From a virus (taxonomy: Duplodnaviria; Caudoviricetes): a stretch of DNA of 64,000 nucleotides. The notes below the pieces were generated by a model. That model was given only the letters and a program-made list of their open reading frames with translations. It was not told the origin of the DNA and searched no databases. The DNA is taken from positions 1 through 64,000 of IMG/VR virus record IMGVR_UViG_3300014205_000205; one strand, given 5' to 3'. Positions 13,659-56,317 of the stretch are shown piece by piece. Within the stretch, counting starts at the first letter, position 1. The number at the start of each line of letters is the position of its first letter. The position numbers and the translations under genes are program-made.

Positions 13659-13749
13659 GAATCATTGGCCCTGCGGTGCCATGGTTGTACCTGCCAAGAT
13701 TCGGCCATGGCAAAGGGAGATCGCCGCCTCCGACGATCTCCCTGCCGCA
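13659..13749 (-). ncRNA. Candidate cis RNA: three-way junction plus pseudoknot (element 1)
   Basis: P1 13749-45/13676-72; P2 10 bp; P3 8 bp; P3 loop GAAUCUUGGC pairs with downstream GCCAAUGAUUC. Confidence 0.55.
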
Positions 13750-13774
13750 CTACTCCCCCGCTACTCAAGCGGGG

Positions 13775-14962
13775 TTAAAACTTATACCGCGCCCGCCGCC
13801 GTCCGTCGTCGTACTCGACCGGCACTTCCCGGGCCCCGGCCGCTTCCATTAGTGGCCGATACCAACCATAGACCCCGCCAGGTGCCCGATTCTCCAGGCC
13901 GAACTGCCCCTTGAGTTCCGGCTTATGCACGCCGCTGACGTAGACTTCAAGCGTCTCCACATCGATCTCAATCACAACCGGGGTCTGGTAGGGACGTAGA
14001 GTCAGTTGGCCGTATCCAGTCTGGTCATTGCGCGCAGGCAAGCCGGGGAGCTGGCGGGCGTTGCTAGTCAGCCAAAGGTAGCAGGCATCGTCGGACCAGT
14101 CGCGCCCAGTGGCCATGGCGTAGGAGATGTAGCAGGCTTCCAGGCCAGCCGCGATCGGGGCCGCGAATGAAGTGCCCATATCCCACGACCCCGGCACGCG
14201 CCCAACGGCCACGGCATCTACCTCGGGGTAACTGGAGGAGAACTCGGACGGCTTCCATGGCAGCCAGTCCATCATGGTGCCGGTGTCAGGCATCCCGCCG
14301 TGGTCAATCGCGCCAATGGCCGTCACGTACTCATAGGCACCCGGGTATGACCGCTCTACGATGTCTGCGGAACCCTTGTCCAGCGAGGTGTTGCCTGCTG
14401 CCGCGATGAGTGGCATTTGCTTGCCCTCGTGCATCGCCACACCCAAAGCCAAAGCCGGATTGGCGTCACCACCGATAGAGGCGTTTGTGAGGTGCCCCGC
14501 TTCGGATGCTTTCTGCAAGCCCAAGCCGGCCGTTGCGTCCTCGCAGTAACCTTGGTCACCAAAGATGCGGATGGTGCGTATCTGCGCCTTTGGGGCGATG
14601 GCCAGGACGATCCTTGTCACCAGCGAACCGTGGCCCAGGCGGTCGAGTAGGTCAGCCGGATCTCCACCGGGGGCCAGGTTAAGCCCACCGATGAGCGCGC
14701 CTTCCGGCACCTGCTCAGGATGTGGAGCGCCAGAGTCTACGACGTTGATGATCACACCTTGGCCAGCGAAGCCCATGCGATGCAGGTCTTCAGCGAAGGT
14801 CTGGAACTGGTTGGCACTCGGGAATGGCGCGCCCGCCGCCAACCGTATCTTGGGTGTCTCGATCTTGAACAACGCGGTCCCTCCCTGACTGATAGCAAAA
14901 TAGGGGCTCCCCGAAGGAAGCCCCATCTGAGACGAACTCAATTTAACTGTGGAAATTCTCAA
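13775..14962 (-). CDS. Subtilisin-like S8 serine protease with C-terminal stalk-like domain
   Basis: VVDSG, LGHGSLV, AAAGN, MGTSFAAP catalytic motifs; start uncertain. Confidence 0.9.
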   Translation of the reverse strand: MRISTVKLSSSQMGLPSGSPYFAISQGGTALFKIETPKIRLAAGAPFPSANQFQTFAEDLHRMGFAGQGVIINVVDSGAPHPEQVPEGALIGGLNLAPGGDPADLLDRLGHGSLVTRIVLAIAPKAQIRTIRIFGDQGYCEDATAGLGLQKASEAGHLTNASIGGDANPALALGVAMHEGKQMPLIAAAGNTSLDKGSADIVERSYPGAYEYVTAIGAIDHGGMPDTGTMMDWLPWKPSEFSSSYPEVDAVAVGRVPGSWDMGTSFAAPIAAGLEACYISYAMATGRDWSDDACYLWLTSNARQLPGLPARNDQTGYGQLTLRPYQTPVVIEIDVETLEVYVSGVHKPELKGQFGLENRAPGGVYGWYRPLMEAAGAREVPVEYDDGRRRARYKF

Positions 14963-14980
14963 TCCTTTCGCCCATAATGG

Positions 14981-15301
14981 ATGGCAAAGGGGTGTTGCCG
15001 AATGTTTTCGATCGTTACTTTCATCGTTATGGGCGTCGTTTGCTTGTTGGTGTCATTCAACGTTTTCCGGATCCATACGCCAAATCCGTTCCTAGACTGG
15101 GTGTTCTTTGGCACGGCGGCACTATGCTTCATCGGCGCGGAGTTAGCCAGTATCTGGCGGCGTACAGCCATAGCGTCAGAATCAGCCGCCGAAGCTCTAG
15201 ACCGGCAAACCGCGCTGCTAAGGAGCATTGCGTTCAACTTGCCGAGCGCGGTAGAACCGACTGGTTTGGAATCAGAACCCAGCGCCGACGAACAAATCTG
15301 A
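14981..15301 (+). CDS. Two-TM membrane protein opposing the late operon (moron-like)
   Basis: Two hydrophobic helices plus acidic tail; fills the gap between integrase and protease. Confidence 0.65.
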   Translation: MAKGCCRMFSIVTFIVMGVVCLLVSFNVFRIHTPNPFLDWVFFGTAALCFIGAELASIWRRTAIASESAAEALDRQTALLRSIAFNLPSAVEPTGLESEPSADEQI

Positions 15302-15343
15302 AACTAGGGCCATACTGCCCACGGCTCTCATCAGAATTCCCGC

Positions 15344-16276
15344 CTACTGCGGCATGTAACGATTGTACTGCTCCTGTCGGCGTTTACCGCTTAACTGCGC
15401 ATACAGCTGAGTGGTTTCGGGCTTCTCATGACCAAGAATCGACTGCACTGCCGACAACTCCGCCCCACCGTTGAGCATGGCGGTCGCCATCGTGTGCCGG
15501 AAACTATGGGGGTGGACCTTCTCCCGCAAGCCGCAACGGTTAGCGACTTGTTTCACCGCCCACCAAATTTGGTGCGGGCTGAGCCGATGCTTGAAACCCT
15601 TGCCGTTGGTGAACAGGTATTCGCAGTCATCCTCGCGCTTGTCCAAGTACCGCTTCATCCACAGAGCCGCCTTGGCGTTGAAGTAGACTTCGCGTTCTTT
15701 CGATCCCTTGCCCATGACAACCAGACAGCGACGGTTCCAATCGATGTCCGCCTGCTTGATGTTGGATACCTCCATAGCCCTGCCGCCCGACGCGAAAAGG
15801 AACTCGACCAAGGCGTGTTCCCGCACGGTCTTGCAGGAGTCTCGGATGAGTTCCAGCTCGTCGAAGCTCAGGGCCTTCGGAATCCTCTGCGGCTGTTTCG
15901 GCTCCCGCAACTTGTGCGCAGGACTTCGAGCGAGGACATCCTCCTCTACGCACCACGTGAAGAAGGACCTAACCATCCGCACACGATGAGCAATGGTAGA
16001 CGCCTTCCGACCTTCTGATGCCTTCCCGCCGATATAACCCCGCAAATCCAGGAGGGTAATCTCCTCGATGGGCTTGTCGCCGATGTTCCGGGCCAGCAGT
16101 CGCAACTGGATGTCGTAACAGCGGAGGGTGAAGGGCGAATACCCCTCAGTCCTCCGCTGTTCACGCCACGCGACCACGGCCTCAGAGAGTAGAGTCCGTA
16201 TCCTACACTTCAGGTTCTGTGATCTGCGGCAGGAACGGCACCAGGTCGGCGTAGGCGAATCCGCTATAGGTGACAC
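15344..16276 (-). CDS. Tyrosine recombinase (XerC/D-like)
   Basis: ASGGRAMEV, GKGSKER, HSFRH, LGH, TQLY: full R-K-H-R-H-Y set; true start uncertain. Confidence 0.92.
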   Translation of the reverse strand: MSPIADSPTPTWCRSCRRSQNLKCRIRTLLSEAVVAWREQRRTEGYSPFTLRCYDIQLRLLARNIGDKPIEEITLLDLRGYIGGKASEGRKASTIAHRVRMVRSFFTWCVEEDVLARSPAHKLREPKQPQRIPKALSFDELELIRDSCKTVREHALVEFLFASGGRAMEVSNIKQADIDWNRRCLVVMGKGSKEREVYFNAKAALWMKRYLDKREDDCEYLFTNGKGFKHRLSPHQIWWAVKQVANRCGLREKVHPHSFRHTMATAMLNGGAELSAVQSILGHEKPETTQLYAQLSGKRRQEQYNRYMPQ

Positions 16277-16406
16277 CGTGGTCGTTGAACCACTGCCGCA
16301 CCATATGCACCAACCAGTGCTCGGTCTCCACCGTCACAGCCGCACCGTCTACCGGGTCCACCTGGGTCATCGCCCAGATTACTGCGTCTATCGTCTCAAC
16401 AGGCAT
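16203..16406 (-). CDS. Small hypothetical tail-module protein
   Basis: ATG after GGAGGCGG. Confidence 0.6.
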   Translation of the reverse strand: MPVETIDAVIWAMTQVDPVDGAAVTVETEHWLVHMVRQWFNDHGVTYSGFAYADLVPFLPQITEPEV

Positions 16407-16419
16407 GTGTTTCCGCCTC

Positions 16420-17673
16420 CTACTGCATTTCCACAACGATGGTCAGAGCGCCGGATGCGGGAGCGGAGCCGAACGTCACCCGTACAATCAGGTTGCTATG
16501 CAGTCCCTTAAGCGCAGGGACAGCCTTTTGCGTTGTTGCCGCTCCGGTCGCCGTTGCTCCTGCCTGAAGCACCAGCGAACCGGATGACGCTAGGTTGGTC
16601 GCCTCTGCGTATAACAGTCCAGCCGAGTTTACCGATGTAGACCCAACTGAGCGATTCGCCGTATACAGCGCCACTGTAGCTGCCTGATTGTGTGTGTTGT
16701 AGCACGAGATCTTAAACTCACCAAACCGTCGAATCTGATCCTCGGTGAGCAACCCGTGCGTGATGAGGTTGTAATCGTGAATGCTTGTGTCCGTGATCGC
16801 CACGGCGGCGACGATGGTCAAGCTGTTCTGGTTGTGCCGTGTACTGACCATCAGCACGTTCTCGGAGTCTGTCTCCAGCGCACCACCTTGCCCGTCGGTG
16901 CGGGTTGGCTTCGTCGTGTGGTAGACGCCACCGATTTGCGTAGCCCTGTTGGGTGCGAGACGCCCGTTGCGTCCCTCGCTTAGTGGTGAGACGATGACGG
17001 ATTCGCCCAGCACCTCTACCGTGAGGGAGACGTAATCCGTGTAGATGGTGGAGGGGCCGCTGCCGTCGCTGGGGTAGGTTGGGTGAAGCAGGGCGTTGAC
17101 GATGCCGGTGGCGGGGTCGATTGCCACACCCAGGAGACTGCCGGTTAGGTTAGGCGAAATCGCAGTCGGAGTACTAGCTGTGTGCGGAGTACCCCGGTCA
17201 AACCATGCGCTCGTATCATTGTGCCACATTTTGCATGTCGCCCCGTATGCTGGGACACCACCATTGACGCCTACCCCGTAACAATACGCATTCATGGTCA
17301 ATGATTGGATGTTGGCGATGAGGTCCGCTACCGTCCAGTTCTGCGGGACCTTGCCACGGCGCTTGAGATCGTTGAGGACATCCCAGGCAAAGAGTTGCTG
17401 GGCGTAGTAGTTAAGGCCAGTTGTGTTGCCGATGCTTGTTGAGTTCCCATCGCCTTGGGTTACGATGCTCGTGTAGTTTGCTGCGCCGAACTCAGTCAGG
17501 AACGAGGCTGGCGTCCCAAATGTAGTAGCGGATACGTACTTCGCCACGTGCGGTACGTCGGTGATCACGCCAACCGTCTTGCCCTTGAAGTCCATCGTCT
17601 GGCTGACGTAGGGCTGACCGTCAAGATTACTGCCCGTTACTTCGCTTTTTACTTTCCCTTTGATCAGTTTCAT
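16420..17673 (-). CDS. Putative tail fibre / minor virion protein
   Basis: 417 aa, beta-rich, T/S/G-rich, distal tail position. Confidence 0.55.
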   Translation of the reverse strand: MKLIKGKVKSEVTGSNLDGQPYVSQTMDFKGKTVGVITDVPHVAKYVSATTFGTPASFLTEFGAANYTSIVTQGDGNSTSIGNTTGLNYYAQQLFAWDVLNDLKRRGKVPQNWTVADLIANIQSLTMNAYCYGVGVNGGVPAYGATCKMWHNDTSAWFDRGTPHTASTPTAISPNLTGSLLGVAIDPATGIVNALLHPTYPSDGSGPSTIYTDYVSLTVEVLGESVIVSPLSEGRNGRLAPNRATQIGGVYHTTKPTRTDGQGGALETDSENVLMVSTRHNQNSLTIVAAVAITDTSIHDYNLITHGLLTEDQIRRFGEFKISCYNTHNQAATVALYTANRSVGSTSVNSAGLLYAEATNLASSGSLVLQAGATATGAATTQKAVPALKGLHSNLIVRVTFGSAPASGALTIVVEMQ

Positions 17674-17686
17674 TTAAGTCACCGTC

Positions 17687-18121
17687 CTAAGTGGAGTACG
17701 TCACGACAACTACAGCAGTAGTCGTAGAGCTAAGCACCATGCGATAGTTGGCAATCTCACCGGAGGACTCCAGGAGGATAAAGTCAGAGTCGTTTGCCCG
17801 GTGATTCCCGGTTGCCGCCGTGGACGCCGCGACCCCATCGACGCGGTAGTTGATCCCCGCCGACTGCACCTCCAGGGCGGCATAGATGGCCGCGCCATAC
17901 GTTGCGGAGGTCAGGCTTTGACCGGACGTCGTCACTGTGATAGCCTCAAATGCCATGGGCGTCAGGCCGCGAGGGACCACCTCAATGGCCCACTCAGACG
18001 AACCGACCTGGCGAGCCGCAATTGGCTTGTACAGGTCGGTGGATGGTACGTATGCTTGCGGTAACAGTTGGGCGGCGTCATTCGTCGCCAGGGATGCACT
18101 GGTAGAGCCCATTTTGTCCAC
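17687..18121 (-). CDS. Putative minor virion protein, S/T-rich
   Basis: 144 aa in tail module. Confidence 0.6.
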   Translation of the reverse strand: MDKMGSTSASLATNDAAQLLPQAYVPSTDLYKPIAARQVGSSEWAIEVVPRGLTPMAFEAITVTTSGQSLTSATYGAAIYAALEVQSAGINYRVDGVAASTAATGNHRANDSDFILLESSGEIANYRMVLSSTTTAVVVVTYST

Positions 18122-18162
18122 GCCCCCCCGAACTGAAGTCTAAGAATCCCGAAGGCTCTCCT

Positions 18163-18978
18163 TCAAACATCGGTCAAGACGATCATACCGTCGCCTGTTT
18201 GTACACCGTTGAACATTATGGTATCCGTACCTGCCGAATAACCAGAACCGCCTGCTCCACTTCCTAAATTACTATTGGTTTCGGTATCGCCCGTGCCTCC
18301 GCCACCACCATAATAGCCGCCGCCGCCGCCGCCGCCATTGTAGCCGTACCCCGGATTACAATTACCGCCATTCCCTAAACTACCGTCATAGTGAATGCCG
18401 ATGCCGCCTGCTGATTGGGTACCTCCTGTAGCCGGGGTAACGGCAAAAGTAGTATCACCACCGCCGCCTGTCAAACCACCGCCGGCTCCGCCATCGCGAT
18501 GGCCACTACCGTTGTCTTCTGTGCCGCCTCCACCGCCACCGGCGACAGCTACCCGATTAGCTAAAGCGGTACCGCCTTGCCGCACATCGGAAGCCCCGCC
18601 ACCACGGCTAGAGCCGTTACCACCATTCCAGCCGCCAGATAGACCAGAACCACCAACATAGAGATTCAAGGTCTCGTCATGCGTGACTGTAATCTTAGTC
18701 TTGACATAGCCACCCCTGCCGCCGATGCCAATTCCCGATTGGCCCTGGGCACCATAGCACTCTATCCACATTCTTTTCCTGCCTTTAGGGACAACGAATG
18801 TCTGAAGTGCTCCGGTGTAATTAAAGGTCCAAGACAATGCCTGATATCCGGCGGCGGCCGGTATGGTGACAAGAGACGCGTCCGACAATGCCTTATTCGG
18901 AATTTCGACGAACCCCACTGTATCTGGAATCGTAACGCTAAAAGGCCCTGTAACCAATGGATTTGCTGTGCCGCGCAT
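18163..18978 (-). CDS. Glycine-rich domain protein (Gly_rich / ALK-LTK-like), putative tail appendage
   Basis: GAQGQSG..GGRGGYV..LNLYVGG..GGGASDVRQGG..RVAVAGGGGG; ATG 18978 after GGAG. Confidence 0.75.
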   Translation of the reverse strand: MRGTANPLVTGPFSVTIPDTVGFVEIPNKALSDASLVTIPAAAGYQALSWTFNYTGALQTFVVPKGRKRMWIECYGAQGQSGIGIGGRGGYVKTKITVTHDETLNLYVGGSGLSGGWNGGNGSSRGGGASDVRQGGTALANRVAVAGGGGGGTEDNGSGHRDGGAGGGLTGGGGDTTFAVTPATGGTQSAGGIGIHYDGSLGNGGNCNPGYGYNGGGGGGGYYGGGGGTGDTETNSNLGSGAGGSGYSAGTDTIMFNGVQTGDGMIVLTDV

Positions 18979-18980
18979 GG

Positions 18981-19334
18981 CTAAATTGTCTCCAGATAAC
19001 CGTAACCGATTACCTGGATAGACGTTGCTGTTACGGCATTGCCCACGATCGACTGTTGCGAGGTCGTGGAGGACATTACGATGGGGCCGAAGGCAATGGT
19101 TTGATTGGCTAAAATCGTTGTGTTTGTCAACCATCCGATGTCGGCACCGGAACTGGTGGCCCGATGTGAAACCGTAGCCTGAGCGTCCAAGGTGGTCATA
19201 TTGACTACATACACCGCCGTCACGATGGTCCTTACAGCGGTAGAAGGCCCAGCATAGATAGACGTTGCCGCACTCGTAGAGAGCGCAGTCGTATAGAACA
19301 GGAGCCCCGGCGTTGCCGCCGTGGACATGGCCAT
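18981..19334 (-). CDS. Small S/T-rich virion protein
   Basis: 117 aa, about 30% Ser+Thr by hand count. Confidence 0.7.
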   Translation of the reverse strand: MAMSTAATPGLLFYTTALSTSAATSIYAGPSTAVRTIVTAVYVVNMTTLDAQATVSHRATSSGADIGWLTNTTILANQTIAFGPIVMSSTTSQQSIVGNAVTATSIQVIGYGYLETI

Positions 19335-19346
19335 GGTTCACGCCCC

Positions 19347-19535
19347 CTATAACCCTAGAAGTTGCAGCAGGATCACTTCACCTTGGACATTCTTGACCGT
19401 CGCCGATGCGTCTACTTTGCCAGTGGAACCGCCTAAAACCAGTAAATTATCTCTGCCGTTGACATTCCAGAAAGAAGCTGTAATCACGGACCCGGTGACC
19501 GCGGTGGCGGGGCTTGTCCAGCTAATATCACTCAC
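19347..19535 (-). CDS. Small tail protein
   Basis: WTSPATAVTGSVITASFWN..RDNL pattern seen at tail-fibre N-termini. Confidence 0.6.
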   Translation of the reverse strand: MSDISWTSPATAVTGSVITASFWNVNGRDNLLVLGGSTGKVDASATVKNVQGEVILLQLLGL

Positions 19536-19975
19536 ACCCCTTCATGCGAAAGGGCCCGCCATCGTTTTGGCAGGCCCCGCTTGGCATTTTCGGCTTCCAG
19601 TGCTTTCAACGTCTCGCCAACTTCCCAGTTGCGGTTAGCTGGCACCGGTCTGGCCATGAGCACCGCATCGATCTCTGCCTTGTTACCAGGCAGAACCACC
19701 CCGCGCCACATATGACCTACAACCCCGTTCCAACAGTTCACGCAAAGAAAAAGGAGTTTGTCCGGCCAGACAAACTCCGCTCCGCCGCAGTCCGGGCAGT
19801 CCACAATCCACCGGTTGTGATTCACTCGCGCCATCAAGGGCGGTCCTGAATCAATCAGTCCCAGTGACGGAACCTTAACCCCGGCCTTTCGAGCCATGAC
19901 GGCTAGTTGCCCTTTGACCCAGTCATCCAGCGTGCCGCCAATCTGCATCGACGCGTCAATAATCGGTAACGCCAC
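19532..19975 (-). CDS. Zn-binding hypothetical protein
   Basis: CPDCGG...CVNCWN; GTG start trimmed. Confidence 0.65.
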   Translation of the reverse strand: MALPIIDASMQIGGTLDDWVKGQLAVMARKAGVKVPSLGLIDSGPPLMARVNHNRWIVDCPDCGGAEFVWPDKLLFLCVNCWNGVVGHMWRGVVLPGNKAEIDAVLMARPVPANRNWEVGETLKALEAENAKRGLPKRWRALSHEGV

Positions 19976-27425: not shown

Positions 27426-27839
27426 TTAGCTGGTAGTCGCGACAGTGACCGCTCCGGAGCCCTCAAGGCCGATCGATAGGCCGACCACGCCATCAACCGA
27501 GGCGTCGACGTCATATGACCCCACCTTGACCTCTTGCTGGAACATGTTGTTGGTCGTGCCATCGATCATGAACTGGGTGTACAGGGCAGAGTCGTTGACC
27601 AGCGCATTGCGGATGGCTGATTGCCCGGACAGGTCCGTGCTCATGAGAAACCCGGACAGGCTGTAGGATGCGTCCTTTACCCCTTGCAGACGGGAACGCC
27701 ACCCGGCGCCAAATGCCGTGATGTCGAAATTCTCGCCCGCTATGTTCATCGTCGCGGAGTTCATCTGGCCCACAGTGGTATAGGTACCCCCCGAGGCCGT
27801 CGACACCTTGACCAGTAGGTTCTTGCCAGCTACTGCCAT
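27426..27839 (-). CDS. Tail tube (major tail) protein paralogue 1
   Basis: MAVAGKNLLV, DITAFGAGWRSRLQGVKDASYSLSG, GLEGSG. Confidence 0.85.
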   Translation of the reverse strand: MAVAGKNLLVKVSTASGGTYTTVGQMNSATMNIAGENFDITAFGAGWRSRLQGVKDASYSLSGFLMSTDLSGQSAIRNALVNDSALYTQFMIDGTTNNMFQQEVKVGSYDVDASVDGVVGLSIGLEGSGAVTVATTS

Positions 27840-27878
27840 TCAACTCACTCCTTTTTATTTAGATCTGAAAAGCCATTG

Positions 27879-30854: not shown

Positions 30855-31819
30855 AACGCTACCCATGCCTCCTGCATGTACTGCTGGTTCTCCAGGGCGC
30901 CCAAGAGCTGCTGCTGCATATTGTTCAGCCGGGTCATCTCGGCCTGGACTTGGCCAAGGCGGGTCTGCAGCTCACCCTTGCGCGAGTTCAGCTTGACCAT
31001 CATGGCGTGGGCCTTTGGCTGCTCCCAGCCATAGAGGTGCGAGGTCTTCAGCAAATCGCTTTCCTGCGGCATGTAAACCCGCACGCCGGCCTGTTTGGCA
31101 ATGCCGAGGAAGTACTCGCACGACGGCCTTTGGGCGGCATACTCGCTGCCCTGGGCCATATCGACACCGTAGATGTGGATCTCTTGGAAGCCTTCGGATA
31201 GGGCCAGGGCCATCATGTAGCTGATCGAATTGGTGTAGTAGCCGCCGTACTTGGCGATCATCACCTGCAGCGGGTACTCAACGCTGTTTGGGATGTCGTC
31301 CCAGTGCCGCTGCATGTACACAAGGCACCCCAGAGCCGCCATCTTGGCAGCGTGTTCATTGGAAGCGTTGCGACTGTGGAAGAAGGGGTTGCCCGCGTAC
31401 TCCGTCTCGCGGCCGTGGATCTCAAACCAGCGCAGGCGGGCCTCTACTTTCGGCTTCGCCCACGGGTCCGAGCCATCTGCCATCCGCATGTCGTAGGCTT
31501 CGTTGAGGGACCAGAGCTCGAAGTCTGGGTCATCGAACGGCGCTTGGTTCCAGTGGCTGGCGAACCCGACGATGGCCACTTTCTTGATCTTGACGGGCGA
31601 TGCCGTCTTCGCCAGTTCCGCGGGCTCCTCTTCTACGACCGGAGCCTCGTTAGGCCGCTCTGGTTCAACGGGCATCGGGACAACCGGCTGCGCTTCGGGA
31701 GCAGGGGCGGGAACACTAGTCTTTTTCTTTTTGGAAACGTTCGGCTGGTGCACTCTCGTCCTCGACCTCGTAGCGCTCGGTGCAAGGTCCACGGAGTTCT
31801 CGGTACTCAAATGATTCAT
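30851..31819 (-). CDS. Putative sialyltransferase-fold glycosyltransferase (CstII/GT42-, GT29- or Maf-like)
   Basis: KKVAIVG, WSLNEAY, TNSISYMMALALSEGFQEIHIYGVDMAQGSEYA resemble CstII motifs as recalled (KKVIIAG, FRCNQFY, TSGVYMCAVAIALGYKEIYLSGIDFYQNGSSYA). Confidence 0.7.
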   Translation of the reverse strand: MNHLSTENSVDLAPSATRSRTRVHQPNVSKKKKTSVPAPAPEAQPVVPMPVEPERPNEAPVVEEEPAELAKTASPVKIKKVAIVGFASHWNQAPFDDPDFELWSLNEAYDMRMADGSDPWAKPKVEARLRWFEIHGRETEYAGNPFFHSRNASNEHAAKMAALGCLVYMQRHWDDIPNSVEYPLQVMIAKYGGYYTNSISYMMALALSEGFQEIHIYGVDMAQGSEYAAQRPSCEYFLGIAKQAGVRVYMPQESDLLKTSHLYGWEQPKAHAMMVKLNSRKGELQTRLGQVQAEMTRLNNMQQQLLGALENQQYMQEAWVAL

Positions 31820-34241: not shown

Positions 34242-34299
34242 TGCACTTCACTCCTTTCTATGCCGGGGCCCGCCACATGACAGGCCCCGCATGACTCAA

Positions 34300-35262
34300 T
34301 CAGGCGACGCACGCATTGAAGAACGCAGCGCAGTCCGCGGCGACGACCTTCTGGGCGTAGGCCATTTCGCCTTCAATCCGATCCGAACGCTTCAGGTCGA
34401 TCCGGAAACGGCTGATGACGGAGCCGGACTGATTGGCGCCCAGATACCCGGTCCAGTCGAATGTGTAGCCGGCAGACGGCATCAGAAGGCCCGGAGACGG
34501 AGCCGAGTAGCAGAGCAGGGCATGCTTGCCGTAGAGGAATGACATGGAGGCGTTTGCCCCCTCAACAGCGGAGTTCTGCACGGCATAGGGCACCAATACC
34601 CGGTCGACGTCAAACAGGGCCGGAAGCAGATCCAGAGTGACAACACCGCGCTGGACGTGCTTGATCCGGTCGATGATGTCCGGGTGATGGCGCAAGGCGT
34701 CAAAGACCTGCGGGCCGATCACCAGGGTGTTGGGTTTGTAGCCGGTGTTCTGCGAAACAGCGATGGACTGGGCGGTGACGTCCTCGATTGGCGTGCTGGA
34801 GTTCGTGCCCCACTGGGTGCCGACGGTGATGTCGGTACCGGTGGTGGAGCCTGTCCAGATGCCGGTCGTGAAGAAGTTCGTCACCCAATCAGCTTCACGC
34901 TTGATCAAAAGCTGATGCGTCACCCACTCGGTAGCATCCCGGTCCATGTCGAGCGGCGCATCGGCATTGGCCCGGGTCTGATCGTCGATATCCTTGTGGA
35001 CGGCAACCACGTTAGCCGAATACACGTCTGTGCTGTTGGAATAGCCGCTGCCAGCCGACTCGGTAGCCGGGGCCCGGACCTTGGCCTCAGACCGATGCCA
35101 GTATTCCTTGGGGTACGTAAAGAACTTGTCGGATTGCTTGCTGACAGGGACGCGCGGGAAGGCTGTCCCGGCGATAAAATTGGTAGCCCTCTGGAGGTAT
35201 GCCACGCTGATGTTAGTCAGCGGCCGGTTTACATGTACTTGGTTAATGGACGGATCAGGCAT
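34300..35262 (-). CDS. Major capsid protein (gpE-like HK97 fold)
   Basis: LTNISVAY, FPRVPV, EAKVRAPATE, LIKREADW, KPNTLVIGPQVFDALRHHP; position after scaffold and decoration. Confidence 0.9.
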   Translation of the reverse strand: MPDPSINQVHVNRPLTNISVAYLQRATNFIAGTAFPRVPVSKQSDKFFTYPKEYWHRSEAKVRAPATESAGSGYSNSTDVYSANVVAVHKDIDDQTRANADAPLDMDRDATEWVTHQLLIKREADWVTNFFTTGIWTGSTTGTDITVGTQWGTNSSTPIEDVTAQSIAVSQNTGYKPNTLVIGPQVFDALRHHPDIIDRIKHVQRGVVTLDLLPALFDVDRVLVPYAVQNSAVEGANASMSFLYGKHALLCYSAPSPGLLMPSAGYTFDWTGYLGANQSGSVISRFRIDLKRSDRIEGEMAYAQKVVAADCAAFFNACVA

Positions 35263-35311
35263 ATTTGTTCATCCCATCCTGTGCTCGCCAGCCCCTGGCG
35301 GCGCGACACAT

Positions 35312-35392
35312 GCCCCACGAAAACTAATCGTCGGGCTCTGGCCGTGGGGCGCGACCATACGGGCGGAATAGCGAGTTCCGCCTGAGCCCGAC
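35312..35392 (-). ncRNA. Candidate cis RNA in MCP leader: three-way junction plus pseudoknot (element 2)
   Basis: P1 9 bp GUCGGGCUC/GAGCCCGAC; P2 7 bp; P3 5 bp; loop GCCCCAC pairs with downstream GUGGGGC. Confidence 0.6.
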
Positions 35393-35399
35393 AAAGTTA

Positions 35400-35423
35400 A
35401 TTTAGATCAGGTTGATTTAGATC
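35400..35423 (-). promoter_or_regulatory. Tandem GATCTAAAT boxes (third copy at 27857-27865)
   Basis: ATTTAGATC at 35400-35408, 35415-35423 and 27857-27865, all intergenic. Confidence 0.45.
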
Positions 35424-35426
35424 GAA

Positions 35427-35804
35427 TCAGCTCGACTGAAGCATGTGCAGAATTTCCAGCGACACGATGTTGCCAGAGACCAGCGAGGTCGTGCCGGATA
35501 CCAGCATGCCGAGAATGTAATCACGGACGCCGGTGGATGAACCAGCCCGGCCCAGGGTGGTAGCGCCAACCAAGTCGGTGACCGCAAAGTTGCCATCGGT
35601 CATGACCTTGGTTTGACCGCCGATGGCGACCTCAGCGAACCCGCTGGAGGTGCCGGATTGAATCACACCAATGACTTTGGCGCCGGCGCTGGTCGGAAAT
35701 ACCAACAAGCTCTGCGTGGTCAGGCCGACGATCGCATACTGGGACGTGGAGAAGTCTGCGCCTACCTCGTAGGTGCGAGTGATAAGCCCTTGCGAAACAG
35801 CCAT
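35427..35804 (-). CDS. Capsid decoration/cement protein (DUF2190-like)
   Basis: 125 aa between scaffold and MCP; 31/125 Ser+Thr. Confidence 0.75.
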   Translation of the reverse strand: MAVSQGLITRTYEVGADFSTSQYAIVGLTTQSLLVFPTSAGAKVIGVIQSGTSSGFAEVAIGGQTKVMTDGNFAVTDLVGATTLGRAGSSTGVRDYILGMLVSGTTSLVSGNIVSLEILHMLQSS

Positions 35805-48778: not shown

Positions 48779-49095
48779 ATGGCTCTCGCCTCTTTCTTAA
48801 TCTCAACGTTGCCGTGAAGCACTTCTTCGCAAGCTCCTTCTTCACAGGAACACCGATGGACCGATGTTGCCCGGTCATCCTCGGCGCAGAAGTGGACCAC
48901 AAATCCATTCGGACCGGCCAGCGCCTCCGTCGTCAGCAGAACCTTGTTGCCATTGAGGAATACCTCTACCGTGGTTGTCTCCGCTTCCTTGCGATCGGTC
49001 TTAAAACGCAGGGCTGTGTGATCCGGCCCTTGCCGCGGGCCACTCGGAAACGGCTCGGGATGACAGCGCCGGCACCGACATACATGCTCGGCCAT
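48754..49095 (-). CDS. Cys-rich hypothetical protein
   Basis: HVCRCRRCHP and HRCSCEEGAC; GGAAGGGG RBS. Confidence 0.6.
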   Translation of the reverse strand: MAEHVCRCRRCHPEPFPSGPRQGPDHTALRFKTDRKEAETTTVEVFLNGNKVLLTTEALAGPNGFVVHFCAEDDRATSVHRCSCEEGACEEVLHGNVEIKKEARAIWATTAKS

Positions 49096-50353: not shown

Positions 50354-50386
50354 GAATGATGTTCCTCCTCCATCAACAAGCCGGTA

Positions 50387-50598
50387 GAAGGTGATTTTGT
50401 CTATTGGATGCAGGCGATATTAAGAGCTTTTCGTAGCTGCAGCGAGATACACGATTGCATAAATCGCCTGCATGAACGGCCCTGTTCGCCCCTTTGTTTA
50501 CCAGTCCCCAGAAACACGCAATCGCCGCCCATGGCCCAAAACCAGCCGAAACGGCGATCGGACTACCTCAAAAACGCAACGTCCGATAATCACCATTC
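50387..50598 (-). ncRNA. Candidate 212-nt multibranched RNA between terL and the aminotransferase
   Basis: Closing helix 50598-88/50396-87; internal arms 50558-87, 50521-59, 50408-73 (11 bp) and two short hairpins. Confidence 0.45.
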
Positions 50599-50604
50599 CG
50601 TCTC

Positions 50605-52257
50605 TTAGACCTTCCACGGGCTGGAGCGATGCCCGGCCTGCAGATTCAGCGTCATACCGTCATGGGATGGCGCCTTTCCTGTCCGCTCAAAAGCCATCTC
50701 GTCATAGAGCTCCGCATGGGCGAAGTGATCGGCTTTGGTACCCTCCACATAGCGATACACCGGCTGCCCGGTCCGCTTGTCCGTGGAGAGGATACGCTTC
50801 GGGGCCTTCATCTGTGTGAAATAGCCCTCGATGGTTTGCGCATGCGCCGGCAGGATGAGATGTTGCCCCTGCACCCGAGCCATCATCTTGTCCATGGCTA
50901 CCGTCCGGTTAAGATGCACGATGCGTTTATCACCGTCCCATCTGGCCGTCTCCGCTTTGTCCTCGATGTCATACTGTGCCGCCCAGGCCCGGCCCGGAAA
51001 CCGCTCGCAGAACTCAACGACTTTGCGCGTCTCCGGGTTCTTGTCAATCACTGCACAGCGGACGTCGTAGCGAGTCATCAATGACACCAAGTCTTCGAAG
51101 TCGAGCACCGTGCCGATATAGACGGCGCGTTTTTCGTCCTTGTAGCGCATAGAGATTCGAACATGCAAGGCTTTGCCGACGTCTACGCCCATGGAACAGC
51201 GTTTTCCAACGGATGGCATTTCGCGGTACTCTGGGTCTCGGCAAGCCAACAGCAAATCGTCGTCCAGGGCGCCACCCTTGGCAACGTGGGGCAGGCCTAT
51301 GCCTTGGTTCCAAAACTCCTGTTCCGCTGCTGGGTCGTCATCGGCGGCCTTCGCCTCGGTTGCCATTTCCTGCGCCGTCTTGGTTGGGCTTAGGAGCTGG
51401 CTGACGCGACGCCCCCGGATTTCGCCCGAAGGGTTCTGCGGCACCCACAGACCGTTCCAGGCCATGAACGTCGTCGTCGGCTTGTGGCACTTGGCGCACC
51501 AATAATTGGCCGGGACGACCTCCAAGTTGATGTTGTCGGGCCAGGTTGGGATTTGCTGCAGACCGCAAGCTGGGCATACGACCATGAATTCATGCTGATC
51601 GCTTTCTAACCACCGGGCATGGATGCCAAACTCGGGCACCGTTGGCGTCGAGATGTCGAGCTCCCATTTCCACGGACTGGCATCCAGGCGTCGGCGCGCC
51701 AACGGCAGGTGTTTTTGCACCATTTCGTCGAACTCATCAACGATCAGGAAGTCGATCGGCATGCTCTTCAGCTTCGACTTACTGCGAGAGCCCCGGATGA
51801 AGAAGTTGCGCTCCCCGGCGCGCTTATGCTGGGTATTTGAGACATCCGTGAAAAGCGACTCCAGGTAGTCCGACCCTTCGATGGCCGGCCCGAACCTGGA
51901 GTTGGAGAAGTCGTATGACTCGTCGTCGGTGGGTAAAAGATAGAGAATATCCATGTTGTGGATGTCCAAGCCCCAAAGCGACTTGTTAATGGCGTATTCC
52001 GATAGGCCCATCTGCGCAGCCTTTGAGAGCACCATCACAGGAGATTCATCGGCGTAAATATCCCGAAGAAATGGGTATCGATCCAGATTGAAGGGGCGCC
52101 CATCAATGACACGTCGCCGCTTCGTCCATTCTTCCAAACCGATACGCACTACCGCATGCAGATCCTCCGCTGATTGTATCGGGCCCGCCTTCTTGATGAA
52201 GTAGGCGATCAGCTCCGCTGTCGTCTGCGGTTGTTGAGGTGATTTCTTATTGAACAC
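50605..52257 (-). CDS. terL: Terminase large subunit (gpA-like)
   Basis: KAAQMGLSE, FLIVDEFD, ISTPT, MGVDVG nuclease motif, DHFAHA. Confidence 0.93.
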   Translation of the reverse strand: MFNKKSPQQPQTTAELIAYFIKKAGPIQSAEDLHAVVRIGLEEWTKRRRVIDGRPFNLDRYPFLRDIYADESPVMVLSKAAQMGLSEYAINKSLWGLDIHNMDILYLLPTDDESYDFSNSRFGPAIEGSDYLESLFTDVSNTQHKRAGERNFFIRGSRSKSKLKSMPIDFLIVDEFDEMVQKHLPLARRRLDASPWKWELDISTPTVPEFGIHARWLESDQHEFMVVCPACGLQQIPTWPDNINLEVVPANYWCAKCHKPTTTFMAWNGLWVPQNPSGEIRGRRVSQLLSPTKTAQEMATEAKAADDDPAAEQEFWNQGIGLPHVAKGGALDDDLLLACRDPEYREMPSVGKRCSMGVDVGKALHVRISMRYKDEKRAVYIGTVLDFEDLVSLMTRYDVRCAVIDKNPETRKVVEFCERFPGRAWAAQYDIEDKAETARWDGDKRIVHLNRTVAMDKMMARVQGQHLILPAHAQTIEGYFTQMKAPKRILSTDKRTGQPVYRYVEGTKADHFAHAELYDEMAFERTGKAPSHDGMTLNLQAGHRSSPWKV

Positions 52258-52258
52258 G

Positions 52259-52876
52259 TCACATCAACGCCCTTACCGCGGGATCAGCTTTCAACCGATT
52301 GATTATCTTTTCGAGTATGGCCGGCGGGCACTCCGCTGCGAGTGCCGCCAAAATAGCCTTGACAGCGTTTTCAAACTGCTCGTGCTGCGCAAGGCGGTCT
52401 TTAATATCGACGAACAAAACCATCCACCCGCGCATTTCTTTGGATAGCCCCACCATACTGGAGTAGTACTTACCAAAGTCCGGGGCCACCAATTTGCCGG
52501 TGAGTTGATCCCTCTCCATAACGGTTTCTAACCGTATTACCTCGGCGTCAATGCGTTGCACGTACCGATTCAGCGTCTGGGCCACATCCACTTGGATGGC
52601 GACGATTTCCTTGACGGCCTCGACCTTGAGTTCTTCCGCCCGATCCTGCTGTTTGCAGCGCTTCGTCCGCCTATCGATCGGACCGGACTTCATGTACCTG
52701 GTAATCGCCATGGTGATCGCGTTATCGTTCGGCATGGGCTCCTTGGTGCGGGTTGCCCAGGCTTCCACATCGCCCCGCACGTCCTTGACGATGGAACGAC
52801 CTTTACGCCCCATGGCCCACATCTCTGATACCCGGGGACCGATGCCCCACTCATCCACCTTATGGGGCTTGGCCAC
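52259..52876 (-). CDS. terS: Probable terminase small subunit
   Basis: Helical 205 aa ORF abutting terL; GGAG RBS. Confidence 0.6.
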   Translation of the reverse strand: MAKPHKVDEWGIGPRVSEMWAMGRKGRSIVKDVRGDVEAWATRTKEPMPNDNAITMAITRYMKSGPIDRRTKRCKQQDRAEELKVEAVKEIVAIQVDVAQTLNRYVQRIDAEVIRLETVMERDQLTGKLVAPDFGKYYSSMVGLSKEMRGWMVLFVDIKDRLAQHEQFENAVKAILAALAAECPPAILEKIINRLKADPAVRALM

Positions 52877-52895
52877 TATAACACTCCTTTTATGC

Positions 52896-53005
52896 GTAAC
52901 GCTTGTAACGATTCAAAACGTTACTTTTTGTAACGAGTAACGTTACACGCTCTTGGCGAATCGCTTCCCTACCTTGGAATGCACCGTTTCTTTGCATCGC
53001 GTTAC
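52896..53005. repeat. Cluster of seven GTAACG/CGTTAC hexamers upstream of terS
   Basis: At 52896, 52905, 52919rc, 52930, 52937, 52941rc, 53000rc. Confidence 0.8.
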
Positions 53006-53234
53006 ATCGTCCAATCAGCAGCGAGGTGATGCCTTTGGCCCGACACCGTCAGGCTTCAAAAGTCGTTCCGCTTGGTGCTCCGCAGTTGGTGTCTCGTGCT
53101 ACCGATGACCTCCCCGAATGCGGTCCCATCAAAGTGGAGGTCTACCGAAGGCCCGGGTCCCTGTCTCTGGATATCTCCATTGGACCAGCAAGCGATCATC
53201 CGGGCGCTATCGTCACAGACCTGACATCGCGTAG

Positions 53235-53267
53235 AAAGCCCCCGCCGCCATGAGGTTGTCGGGGGCT
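53235..53267 (-). terminator. Terminator
   Basis: AGCCCCCG/CGGGGGCT stem followed by TTCT on - strand. Confidence 0.65.
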
Positions 53268-53808
53268 AGTTCTTTGCCTTTTGCAATCGTTCCTCGATGT
53301 CCCGGCACGTCTCCGGGTCAACCTCCACCACCGGCCCCCATCTGGGCGCTCTAGCCTCTGGTGAGCCGAAACAGGTCCGGAACCGCTCCGCCCAGGCCTC
53401 GGCTTCTGGTATGGTCGGGAATTGTACCCCTAGGATCTGCGCCGCCCAGTGGCCGATCTCGTGGGCGCTTGTTTGCTGTGCCTGATCCTCACGAAAGAAG
53501 GGCCCGGTGATGACTGCCAGGTCTATACCGCCTATGCGAGTGTAGTAGCCCTTGGCGTCCGGGGGTGGTGTGAGGAGATAGAGCGTGCCGAGGTCCACAC
53601 CGAGGTTTTTCTCCACTGCGGCTCGCTCCGTGTCGAAGATGTCGAACCGGCTGGCCTCTATCTGCGGTCTCGTCAGGCCGGCATCTTTCAGCACTGCCTC
53701 GGGCACCGTCATACCGCTTCCACCCGCTGCTCCTACCATGAGGAGGATACCGAGGGCCATTCCAGCAATGAAGGTTAGCGCTATTCCGCCAGCCAGTTTT
53801 CCGCTCAT
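53266..53808 (-). CDS. Membrane-anchored or secreted HExxH zincin-like protein
   Basis: N-terminal hydrophobic anchor; SAHEIGHW. Confidence 0.65.
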   Translation of the reverse strand: MSGKLAGGIALTFIAGMALGILLMVGAAGGSGMTVPEAVLKDAGLTRPQIEASRFDIFDTERAAVEKNLGVDLGTLYLLTPPPDAKGYYTRIGGIDLAVITGPFFREDQAQQTSAHEIGHWAAQILGVQFPTIPEAEAWAERFRTCFGSPEARAPRWGPVVEVDPETCRDIEERLQKAKN

Positions 53809-54221
53809 ACTTTTACCTCAGTGGCCTCTGGCCAAAAGTCAGGTGGATAGACAGGTTCCAGGTCATTCCCGTCGCGAGAGTTGTTGATATTACCGATGAT
53901 GCGTTCCTGGGTGAATGAGTCTGGCGGGTAGATGACGCCCTTTTCTTGAAGCCACGCGGGTATCTTTTGATTGCTCCACCATACGGCACCATCGAGAAGA
54001 GTCCACGGCTCTTTAGCTCTGTCGTGAACCATCAGGTCCAACTCGGTCCCATCCGGAAAACGGTAGCGGTTTGGCATGATCCCCATCAATTGCAGACCGT
54101 TCCAGACCTCCAAGCTCCACCCACTACTAGGACTGGAGTCGTACTTCTCCCAGACCCATGCCAAATCTAATGTGGACCCCGCCTGCCATTTCGCCTCAGA
54201 TACGCGAGTGCAAATAATCAC
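53805..54221 (-). CDS. Hypothetical protein
   Basis: 138 aa Trp-rich ORF overlapping the next start. Confidence 0.6.
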   Translation of the reverse strand: MIICTRVSEAKWQAGSTLDLAWVWEKYDSSPSSGWSLEVWNGLQLMGIMPNRYRFPDGTELDLMVHDRAKEPWTLLDGAVWWSNQKIPAWLQEKGVIYPPDSFTQERIIGNINNSRDGNDLEPVYPPDFWPEATEVKV

Positions 54222-54281
54222 TGGGTGATATGGTGCTTCATGGTGCTTTGGGCGCGGTCCCCCGCTTGATCAGGTAAAGGT

Positions 54282-54989
54282 TCATGCCTTCACGTCCAAT
54301 CGCGGGTTGAGGGGCTTCGTGTATGTTGATACCTCGGCTGGAATCAGTAGCGGAGGGAAGCCTTCTTCGGACCGGATGGCGTTCACAACATCTAGCCATT
54401 CCTGATGCGTGATGACTCCAAGGTCCGCCTCCCAATGCGCTTGGTCCAGGCGTTGACGGTAACCGAAAAAGCGCCTTTGCGCCTCTGGTGAACTTGCAGG
54501 GCTCGGCGTCGTCGGCGGTCTGTGCAAATCCCATTTGATAAATCCATCTTCCACACCGTGCCCGCAACAAGCGCCAATAGCGCCTGGAATGTGGCCCAAG
54601 CACGGGTCATGTCCCTCTGGCGTGGGCATCTTGCGGCACTGCATACAGGGTCGCTCCTGGCTGATGGGGGTCTGGTCGTCAGCGTAGAACCACGCTTTAC
54701 GGTCTTCGTCCCAGTAGATCAAGTGGCCGCGAGTGTGTGAGGTGACTGTTTTCGGTCTTGACGCTTGGGGCGGCGTCGACGATCTGGGGGTGGAGGGCTC
54801 TGTATTTACTCCACCCTTGCAGACGGTCCCCTCTCGTAGGGGAATGCCATGCGCCGGAGTTGTCGGGCTCAAGCTGTCCTGCATCCCTTTGATCTTCTTA
54901 CGCCAATGGGTATCTGTGATCTTGTAGGCGATGTACGCGCCTAAAGCGAAAGCCGCCCAGATAAGGGCGGCGATTGCGGTTGTGGTCAT
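54282..54989 (-). CDS. Single-TM protein with Cys/His-rich domain
   Basis: CMQC...GHDPCLGHIPGAIGACCGHG; start trimmed to MTTTAIA after GGAGG. Confidence 0.7.
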   Translation of the reverse strand: MTTTAIAALIWAAFALGAYIAYKITDTHWRKKIKGMQDSLSPTTPAHGIPLREGTVCKGGVNTEPSTPRSSTPPQASRPKTVTSHTRGHLIYWDEDRKAWFYADDQTPISQERPCMQCRKMPTPEGHDPCLGHIPGAIGACCGHGVEDGFIKWDLHRPPTTPSPASSPEAQRRFFGYRQRLDQAHWEADLGVITHQEWLDVVNAIRSEEGFPPLLIPAEVSTYTKPLNPRLDVKA

Positions 54990-55426
54990 GCCGCCATCCT
55001 CCAGACGATCCAAGCCGCAGCCAGAGCGATTTGCACCAGGTGCAGGGTGTTGTCGAACACGATGAGCAGCCATGTGCATTCGGGATCGTGCCCGGTAACT
55101 CGCATCAGCCACTTCACCGGCCAGCGGCGGTCTTGGATCCAGTGGATGGCGCCGAGGATAAAGCACACCACTACAAGCAAAGGAAGAACGGCAAGCCCCC
55201 AAGCGGTGCGGGCTACAAGAGCCATGCACGTAAAAACTGCCAGAGCCCACGATTCAGCGTGTAGCGTAATAGCGGTGAAAGCCATGTCGGTGCCGTTGAA
55301 AAGTGGTTTGGCCTTGTTCTGCGCCATCCAATTGGTCTGCACCACGTAGTCACCCAGCAAGTGCCCCAGGAACCCGGCAATGAAAAGTGCCGCCCATATT
55401 TGGACGGCTTCTGCTCCGTTTGTCAT
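54986..55426 (-). CDS. DUF3307-family membrane protein
   Basis: GHLLGDYVVQTNWMAQNK ... HWIQD ... DNTLH. Confidence 0.8.
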   Translation of the reverse strand: MTNGAEAVQIWAALFIAGFLGHLLGDYVVQTNWMAQNKAKPLFNGTDMAFTAITLHAESWALAVFTCMALVARTAWGLAVLPLLVVVCFILGAIHWIQDRRWPVKWLMRVTGHDPECTWLLIVFDNTLHLVQIALAAAWIVWRMAA

Positions 55427-55437
55427 TTACTTTCCCC

Positions 55438-56223
55438 CTATGCCCGAGCGCCGAAGAGTGATGCTATCCGACGCTTCAGCCAGCCGGGGGCATCGGCGAA
55501 CCCCTCTTCGATCTGACCGAAGTACGACCGGGAGATGCCGAGGAAAACCGCCGCTTGGGCCTGCGTCCAACCCATGCCCTTGCGCTGATCCCGAAGCGCA
55601 ACCATGATAGTGGGTGCTAGCTCGTCGGCCCCCTCGGTATCCATGACAAGTTGGAGAGGTCGGCGAGCGAGTTGCTTTGCCGTGCGCTCCAAGGTACCCA
55701 ATCGGCCCGTGGTCTTAGCGACTTGCTTGGCCATGGCGGCGTTTCGTTCGTCTTGGGCTCGTAGTGCTCCATGGATCGCCGCCGCAACGGTCTCTTCGAC
55801 CAACTCCCGGAGCAGCGGCGTCGCGGCACGGATGACGCTAGCCTCCATCTGGCCAGGCGACCGTTGCCGCCGAAACTCTTTCAGCATGGCCCGAACCTTC
55901 TTGCGAAACTCTGCGCCTTTGTCCGTCTGGGCCAGCATAGCGAATGAATACGCGCCCTCTTCACTCAGGACCTTGGTGTCTTGGATTCCTGAAGGGGTGG
56001 TCAATTTGACCACCCCTGTCTCGCCATCGAACTCCTCCGGATTGCGGCTCAGCAGGCGCGCTCCGCTTTGTTTCGGTTCGCTGTAGCCCAGAGCTTTGGC
56101 CACATCGATCACCGGGAAGTAGAACTCGCCGTCCTTTTCAACGAGCCTCACCTGAGCGCCATGAAAATCAAACTCAGACACCGGAACGACACGGTTCTCC
56201 ATGATCCATCTTCCCCTTCGCAT
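55438..56223 (-). CDS. Bro-N antirepressor-like protein with C-terminal XRE HTH
   Basis: FDFHGAQVRLV, FPVIDVAKALGY, LSEEGAY; RKGMGWTQAQAAVFLGISRSYFGQIE; start 56223 or 56202. Confidence 0.85.
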   Translation of the reverse strand: MRRGRWIMENRVVPVSEFDFHGAQVRLVEKDGEFYFPVIDVAKALGYSEPKQSGARLLSRNPEEFDGETGVVKLTTPSGIQDTKVLSEEGAYSFAMLAQTDKGAEFRKKVRAMLKEFRRQRSPGQMEASVIRAATPLLRELVEETVAAAIHGALRAQDERNAAMAKQVAKTTGRLGTLERTAKQLARRPLQLVMDTEGADELAPTIMVALRDQRKGMGWTQAQAAVFLGISRSYFGQIEEGFADAPGWLKRRIASLFGARA

Positions 56224-56238
56224 CTGATTTGCTCCTCT

Positions 56239-56317
56239 TTCCCCTGGATCCAAAAGCACACCAGCGCGTTCCACCGGGGGAAGTCGGTAGAACTAGGCCT
56301 GGCCGGGCCCGCTGGTG
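56239..56317 (-). ncRNA. Candidate cis RNA: three-way junction plus pseudoknot (element 3)
   Basis: P1 8 bp CACCAGCG/CGCUGGUG; P2 4 bp; P3 8 bp; loop UUCCCC pairs with GGGGAA next to the RBS. Confidence 0.45.

Follow-up and report, generated by a model that had tools for sequence, protein, structure and literature searches.

Between the head scaffolding protein gene and the major capsid protein (MCP) gene of an uncultivated tailed phage, IMG/VR virus record IMGVR_UViG_3300014205_000205, lies an RNA element of about 115 nt that is very probably a structure maintained by selection. The window analysed here is the first 64 kb of this 84-kb record, a landfill metagenome assembly with 58% GC and about 74% completeness. 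An initial annotation of the window had joined this element (element 2) with two others, one ahead of the lysis genes (element 1) and one ahead of a Bro-N gene (element 3), in a single class of knotted RNAs. Evolutionary support was found for element 2 alone among the three, and sequence comparison marks it as a new RNA motif, as yet without a name, whose distribution is narrow (seven metagenomic phage contigs). The explanation put forward below is that the three elements do not form one class; that element 2 is a clade-specific, cis-acting leader RNA of the MCP gene with a protective mechanism; that element 3 is terminator-like; and that element 1 is a leader of the lysis cassette. As a whole it is offered tentatively, as a reading that falls a little short of probable.

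Element 2 sits in a 164-nt intergenic gap, and its most likely architecture, as predicted from the aligned copies, is a sense-strand three-way junction (helices P1, P2 and P3) followed by a U-rich linker, a UGGGG sequence that would pair with GCCCCA in the loop of P3 (L3), and a further hairpin, P4. Its parts and flanks are listed in the direction of transcription.

35427-35804, minus strand: head scaffolding protein gene, upstream of element 2 (phrog_673, 1e-12)
35396-35426, minus strand: AT-rich spacer (29% GC) from the scaffold stop codon to P1, in which GATCTAAAT occurs twice and the block ACCTGAnnTAnAY is conserved
35281-35395, minus strand: element 2 within the limits set by covariance model R1, comprising three-way junction, tail and P4 (cmsearch, 109 bits, E 3e-26)
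35384-35394, partner 35328-35338, minus strand: P1, its 5' strand having the core GUCGGGCUC and being extended by U.G and U-A pairs; 5 of 10 pairs changed on both sides among the seven sequences
35362-35382, minus strand: P2 hairpin, GGCGGAA/UUCCGCC with a 7-nt loop; 7 bp in all seven copies with differing letters, 5 of 6 modelled pairs compensatory
35339-35357, minus strand: P3 hairpin, the loop of which (L3, CGCCCCA, 35345-35351) is near-invariant; 3 of 4 modelled pairs compensatory, GCCCC of the loop invariant
35318-35327, minus strand: variable linker with a U-run, 5' of the tail
35312-35317, minus strand: tail UGGGGC, candidate pseudoknot partner of L3, complementary to it in all seven copies
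35283-35302, minus strand: P4 hairpin, GCCGCC...GGCG-A-GC with a bulged A and the loop AGGGGCU (RNAalifold); 2 of 6 pairs compensatory
34300-35262, minus strand: MCP gene, downstream of element 2 (phrog_1005, 5e-87; Phage_cap_E)

The evidence for selection comes from relatives retrieved by a protein search with the MCP. Six metagenomic contigs (L083 to L088), whose MCPs are 64-75% identical to that of the window, all have a gap of 139-186 nt between the gene of a 127-128 aa scaffold protein and the MCP gene, and in all of them the gap can be aligned to the window, giving seven sequences in total. In 80 more distant relatives (MCP 45-54% identical) the same gap measures only -8 to 46 nt, and element 2 is therefore a clade-specific insertion. 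RNAalifold recovered P1, P2 and P3 from the seven sequences together with the additional hairpin P4, with compensatory changes at 14 of 26 pairs. In an alignment fitted to the model, 94.4% of the cells pair, as against 34-44% when the partners are slid by one to three columns, and 15 pairs (distributed over the four helices as listed above) are changed on both sides, as against 1-5 in the slid versions; none of 500 shuffles reached the observed values. Pairs of the G.U type outnumber A.C combinations by about 11 to about 1, which identifies the sense strand as the RNA. The element is also better conserved than its surroundings would suggest: its copies are 68% identical, compared to a mean of 44% for the third positions of the adjacent MCP codons. 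A small open reading frame (ORF) within element 2 was considered as well and rejected, the gap lengths of the relatives differing by non-multiples of three.

The pseudoknot stands on a different footing from the helices. The loop sequence GCCCC(A/G) is invariant in the seven copies, and UGGGG(C/U) forms a conserved island amid a variable, indel-bearing linker and is complementary to L3 in every copy over 5-7 bp, some of them G.U. None of its six pairs has changed on both sides, however, so that the L3-tail pairing is consistent with the data but unproven. Thus the covariation that the initial annotation had asked for is present in P1 to P4 and absent from the loop-tail pairs.

Searches for further members indicate that the motif is rare. 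R1, the covariance model built from the seven scaffold-MCP leaders, found element 2 only once in the 84-kb record, and it added no member from 82 loci with distant MCPs or from the loci hit by pattern scans (19 in metagenomes, 14 in genomes and 13 in viral sequences). Pattern scans of three sequence collections, with L3 and P4 or with L3, P1 and GGGG as anchors, returned chance matches and one copy that was already known. Comparison with Rfam 15 (4227 models, including ribozymes, riboswitches, prohead RNA and phage motifs) gave nothing beyond noise for the elements, whether over the whole window at the gathering score, in three of the relatives at E<=1 or around each element at E<=10, so that neither a known unrelated class nor an exoribonuclease-resistant RNA (xrRNA) is matched. 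The only Rfam match in the window is a tRNA-Gln at 63419-63491.

The initial annotation had likened the topology of all three elements to that of flaviviral xrRNAs. In these RNAs a three-way junction is combined with a pseudoknot (PK1) that joins the 5' end to the junction, an L3-S4 latch, a 15-16 nt ring that encloses the 5' end and nucleotides conserved in the junction (PMC5760640, PMC8374639), and the xrRNA of West Nile virus halts RNase J1 in vitro (PMC5760640). Some of this likeness holds: a three-way junction is the minimum free energy (MFE) fold of each element, and in element 2 it is backed by covariation. In other respects it does not: PK1, the conserved nucleotides and a model match are missing. 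The seven copies of element 2 contain no conserved complement of the 5' flank that could serve as PK1, and the strand between P2 and P3 (J2/3) varies in both length (2-5 nt or more) and sequence (CGUA, UUUU, AU, GAAGA). For these reasons element 2 is placed outside the flaviviral xrRNA family, although a latch between L3 and the tail is plausible from the sequences.

A looser kinship may still be entertained. Element 2 and the flaviviral class 1 xrRNAs are both viral cis elements, with a junction closed by P1, a P3 loop complementary to a downstream strand and a further hairpin on the 3' side. The flaviviral RNAs reside within RNA-virus 3' untranslated regions (UTRs), whereas element 2 is in an mRNA leader of a DNA phage and has a different order of tail and P4. 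Element 2 would then be a device of the xrRNA kind, the first in a DNA phage, its pseudoknotted junction mechanically stopping a host 5'-3' exonuclease (RNase J) after an upstream cut and giving a long-lived capsid mRNA, with elements 1 and 3 as independent inventions. We regard this as a long shot.

The broader proposal of the initial annotation, that all three elements are xrRNA-like knots of one phage class and adjust stoichiometry inside operons by stalling RNase J, appears equally doubtful. It draws on the cartoon topology common to the three, on loop-tail duplex energies that place them in roughly the top 1% of local junctions, on their intergenic positions, on the resemblance of element 2 to the flaviviral RNAs and the in vitro block of RNase J1 just described, and on endolysin look-alikes that come mainly from Bacillota. 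Against it, the two other elements scored about 0 bits with R1. With the filters off, the best scores on elements 1 and 3 were 2.2 and 1.1 bits, in alignments that fell off the described helices, and no relatives could be retrieved for either element. The elements are indeed unrelated in sequence, as the initial annotation had said; as members of one class, beyond the shared cartoon, they are not supported. The missing 5'-flank pairing, the variable J2/3 and the lack of any Rfam xrRNA match tell against the same proposal, as does the ease with which the topology arises by chance.

That chance background deserves some attention. The three elements lie on the minus strand where they had been reported, and RNAfold returned the described junction in each. 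Element 1 folds with P1 UGCGG/CCGCA, a P2 of 13 bp and a P3 of 8 bp at -45.0 kcal/mol (z -4.1, to -4.75); element 2 with helices of 9, 7 and 6 bp at -36.1 kcal/mol (z -1.6); and element 3 with helices of 8, 4 and 9 bp at -36.5 kcal/mol (z -2.0, range -1.0 to -2.0). Complements between loop and tail had been claimed at about 10, 7 and 6 bp, and they are real at 10, 6 and 6 bp. In element 1 the loop GAAUCUUGGC faces the tail GCCAA-U-GAUUC with one bulged U; in element 2 GCCCCA(C) faces (G)UGGGGC, where a seventh pair would compete with the closing pair of P3; and in element 3 UUCCCC faces GGGGAA, with a second GGGGAAG just within the Bro-N ORF. Dinucleotide shuffles of the three sequences nevertheless gave an MFE fold of this type, with P1 enclosing P2 and P3 and no more than 2 nt between P3 and P1, in 6-10% of cases, almost never as stable. 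RNALfold listed 738 such local junctions on the minus strand of the window and 652 on the plus strand, at some 700 distinct loci.

Among these ~700 local junctions, the loop-tail duplexes of elements 1, 2 and 3 (-13.5, -12.5 and -9.8 to -12.5 kcal/mol, respectively) rank in the top 0.1-1.3%, as expected from picking the best cases. Comparison with shuffled tails gave p values of 0.12, 0.05 and 0.07 for the same three. Some signal is suggested by the fact that a contiguous complement of at least 6 nt occurs at only three minus-strand loci, two of which are the intergenic elements 2 and 3. As chance controls, three junctions within coding regions (31473-31575 and 48823-48892 on the minus strand, 16998-17091 on the plus strand) have loop-tail complements as strong as those of elements 1 to 3, with either -12.5 to -14.3 kcal/mol or a contiguous match of 6 nt. 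The junction cartoon by itself is weak evidence for a selected RNA.

Elements 1 and 3 might thus be generic GC-rich hairpin clusters in which the cartoon is the product of chance and of picking the best among many local folds, a reading that is compatible with the explanation favoured here and that we consider close to evenly balanced. The shuffle rate, the abundance of local junctions, the unremarkable p values, the modest z of element 3 and the comparable scores in coding regions all speak for it. The gaps of the three elements are, on the other hand, among the most structured per nucleotide in the window, those of elements 1 and 3 reaching -0.42 to -0.46 kcal/mol per nt, the range of the most structured intergenic gaps, and no shuffle of element 1 was equally stable.

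Element 1 and the gene adjoining it on the 5' side are located as follows.

13775-14962, minus strand: subtilase-like gene, adjoining element 1
13659-13749, minus strand: element 1, a three-way junction (RNAfold) with a 13-bp P2, an 8-bp palindromic P3 and a 10-bp bulged L3-tail complement

The element belongs to a 152-nt gap with four hairpins ahead of the lysis genes, between the subtilase-like gene and a gene for a small protein with a single transmembrane segment, after which comes an Amidase_3 endolysin. A terminator scan found no U-tract terminator here on the minus strand, and a single DNA run mapped over 12400-15400 showed no variant within the element. The subtilase has homologues of at most 59% identity, and locus scans with the subtilase and the small lysis protein in viral contigs, and with the amidase in genome contigs, gave nothing usable as relatives. 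Element 1 is modelled as a leader of the lysis cassette that has several hairpins and is of unusual stability. At 13613-13622 the first GTG of the gene for the small lysis protein is overlapped by the Shine-Dalgarno (SD) sequence GGAGGUG, and a GTG about 9 nt downstream is therefore the likelier start of that gene.

Element 3 follows the stop codon of a free-standing endonuclease gene.

56325-56819, minus strand: HNH-AP2 endonuclease gene, adjoining element 3
56239-56317, minus strand: element 3, a three-way junction 3' of the HNH-AP2 stop codon (RNAfold; terminator scan)
55438-56223, minus strand: Bro-N/Ant-like gene, adjoining element 3

Reading in the sense direction, P1 is succeeded by UGCUUUUG, then by GGGGAA and then by the SD sequence AGAGGAG of the Bro-N/Ant gene, and the terminator scan flags the element as terminator-like (a stem, then TGTGCTTTTG). 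The preceding gap on the same strand (56820-56908), which separates a 164-aa ORF from the HNH-AP2 gene, holds a canonical terminator-like hairpin, GCGCCCCUCC ... GGAGAGGCG, ending in UUUUAG and located just 5' of the GGAGG SD sequence of the HNH gene. Given the scan flag and this neighbouring hairpin with its UUUUAG, the simplest reading of element 3 is a predicted terminator-like hairpin that ends the HNH gene. Relatives could not be assembled: Bro-N had no homologue beyond itself, those of the HNH protein are at most 47% identical and come from unrelated phages, and locus scans of viral contigs with HNH and with Bro-N gave nothing usable. Element 3 and the element 2 family do share small motifs that could have arisen by chance: UUUGCC before P1, CCCC within L3, and GGGG after a U-run. 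As to the start of the Bro-N gene itself (56202-56223), its ATG at 56223 is preceded by the strong AGAGGAG SD sequence, whereas the database protein of 254 aa begins seven codons later.

If element 3 resembles a terminator, the question arises whether element 2 is one as well. In such a reading both would act in intrinsic termination or attenuation through a stem that branches in a Y shape; the GC-rich P1 and the U-run after it would make RNA polymerase pause and let go of the transcript, thereby tuning read-through into the MCP or Bro-N gene. Like a Rho-independent terminator, element 3 and most copies of element 2 present a GC-rich closing helix followed by a U-run: UGCUUUUG after P1 of element 3, and, after the extended P1 of element 2, at least 5 U in 8 nt in five of the seven copies. 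Moreover, a hairpin of the canonical terminator type stands one gene upstream of element 3. Yet the stem of element 2 is branched, the U-run is weak in the other two copies, element 1 has no U-tract at all, and the conserved L3, UGGGG and P4 beside the stem would be left unexplained. A terminator before the late protein that is needed most would also be counter-intuitive. The stretch of 50 nt from the U-run to the AUG is GC-rich and leaves no room for a promoter of this essential gene. We consider this reading unlikely, though with some real points in its favour.

The G-rich sequences of element 2 invite another interpretation, in which the C-rich L3 alternates between two SD-like sites and so gates ribosomes, possibly in concert with a protein, for instance free scaffold or capsid protein; element 3 might perhaps work likewise. 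Element 2 lies in a 5' UTR and contains two conserved GGGG sites, the tail UGGGG and the AGGGG of the P4 loop, the latter a second possible partner of L3 in six of the seven sequences, and in element 3 two GGGGAA(G) sites flank the SD sequence and AUG of Bro-N. The G-runs of element 2, however, are 30-55 nt 5' of the AUG and thus off the actual ribosome-binding site, the P4-loop GGGG is absent from one copy (L088), and covariation favours neither of the alternative pairings. Translational control of this sort is less probable still. An argument from a weak SD sequence of the MCP gene was also tried and rejected, its score standing at the median of the record.

Finally, a junction with a conserved loop and a complementary G-run is also a feature of self-cleaving ribozymes, of ligand aptamers and of trans-acting or oligomerising RNAs such as the prohead RNA of phi29. 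With the latter, element 2 has in common a three-way junction core, an association with head genes and loops with mutually complementary stretches of 4-6 nt (L3 and the P4 loop match over 5 nt). The phi29 RNA is nonetheless the product of a separate gene, whereas element 2 is inside an mRNA leader, and the packaging systems are unrelated, the phage of the window having a Mu-like portal and a gpA-type terminase. No Rfam ribozyme, riboswitch or prohead RNA model matched even at the permissive threshold, and the strands of the junction, short and variable as they are, contain no conserved letters of the kind expected of a catalytic core. Membership in any of these classes is the least credible of the possibilities considered.

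The favoured interpretation of element 2 as a protective leader would work as follows. A late polycistronic transcript would be cut in the AT-rich spacer just 5' of P1, and the compact junction would then form a protected 5' end for the capsid-coding segment. Capsid mRNA might thereby be raised above its neighbours, much as 5' stem-loops shield processed mRNAs from 5'-end-dependent decay, while the GC-rich hairpin directly 3' of the MCP stop codon would cap the other end. AT-rich, single-stranded spacers are typical cut sites of RNase Y or RNase E-type enzymes, and a protective or processing role is favoured because such a spacer, presumably single-stranded, precedes every copy (25-42 nt and 29-48% GC, compared to 56-67% GC in the element), because P1 closes the structure directly after it, because a 12-bp GC hairpin follows the MCP gene and because no other protein is required in such quantity as the capsid protein. 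Such a role would overlap with the stoichiometry idea of the initial annotation and would do so without the need for an xrRNA-type ring.

Several points weigh on the other side. Cleavage and protection at element 2 are steps that we infer; the U-run after P1 in most copies would fit a terminator equally; and the MCP SD sequence, about average for the record, leaves no clear need for special control of translation. The loop-tail pairs lack double-sided changes, the family comprises only seven sequences, some of them from the same or sister samples, and the set of RNases in the host is uncertain.

Two parts of this scheme call for further description. The hairpin after the MCP gene (34242-34299, minus strand) reaches -26 kcal/mol in 58 nt and has no U-tract; it could be a 3' stabiliser of the capsid mRNA segment, as modelled. 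The gap after the MCP gene in the relatives is 12-138 nt long. In the spacer, GATCTAAAT occurs at 35415-35423 and 35400-35408, and its third exact copy, likewise intergenic and on the minus strand, is at 27857-27865, preceding the likely major tail gene (27426-27839). The relatives carry the ACCTGAnnTAnAY block 10-14 nt before P1, often with a direct half-repeat (GTAGAC twice in L087). These sequences may constitute a promoter or a protein-binding site. With regard to a promoter, a longer 12-mer showed no enrichment, and the relatives lack the same word ahead of their major tail gene.

Among the closest known systems, stabilisers at 5' ends and intercistronic processing sites are represented by the cggR-gapA processing of B. 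subtilis, the T7 gene 10 leader and the RNase III sites of T7. Like these bacterial and phage elements, element 2 is a structured intercistronic element before a highly expressed gene, with an AU-rich, presumably single-stranded stretch upstream, and the expected outcome is a differing stability of operon segments. The known stabilisers are simple hairpins or long irregular duplexes, in contrast to the conserved three-way junction with loop-tail pairing proposed here. Another comparison is offered by Mu-gpT-DE, a phage-associated Rfam motif downstream of a head gene. Element 2 is likewise a conserved RNA structure beside the major head gene, and its phage has Mu F genes and a portal of the Mu-like type, but it is located upstream of that head gene, and no Rfam model matched it.

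The gene context given in the initial annotation for all three elements was borne out by gene annotation of the window. Its minus strand carries a long gene block that runs from regulatory genes (at about 57 kb) through terminase, portal and head genes and then tail genes to the lysis genes (12568-13622), with element 3 between the HNH-AP2 and Bro-N/Ant genes, element 2 between the scaffold and MCP genes and element 1 at the entry to lysis. The terminase belongs to the gpA type.

50605-52257, minus strand: terminase (GpA_ATPase match)

Upstream of the gene that precedes this large terminase is a non-coding gap of 389 nt (52877-53265, minus strand), AT-rich in its 3' part, with several CGTTAC/GTAACG repeats and small hairpins; its sequence makes it a candidate for a late promoter, a regulatory region or a pac region.

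The identity of the host bears on which RNases would act on these transcripts. The endolysin combines Amidase_3 with a weak Cu_amine_oxidN1 match, and its look-alike clusters are mostly from Bacillota or viruses, while most genes of the record have SD sequences of the GGAG type. Both observations are compatible with a host among the Bacillota without proving one, and the assignment, drawn from the endolysin look-alike clusters, is only a lead.

The contigs that carry element 2 have other features in common with the window. In L085, L087 and L088, as in the window, nonulosonic-acid and sugar-modification genes (NeuB, CTP_transf_3, PIG-L, GNAT, Gfo/Idh/MocA, SDR epimerase and methyltransferase) are interleaved with the portal and head genes, and L088 has an IS605-type Y1 transposase and TnpB pair beside them. 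The prohead protease (Peptidase_S78_2) of L084, at 316-1269 of that contig, is fused to a 2'-5' RNA ligase/LigT-like domain, and that of L088 to a ChaB domain.

Element 2 thus precedes the most abundantly made protein of an uncultivated phage clade that keeps a nonulosonic-acid pathway in its virion operon. At about 115 nt, with clear helices and two invariant complementary islands of 5-6 nt, it is well suited to simple tests. If a nuclease roadblock were to prove true, the xrRNA principle, known from RNA viruses of eukaryotes, would extend to the DNA viruses of bacteria. If the element is an ordinary stabiliser or attenuator, then this phage lineage would have re-tuned the ratio of scaffold to capsid through insertion of an RNA element where related phages have a tightly coupled gap.

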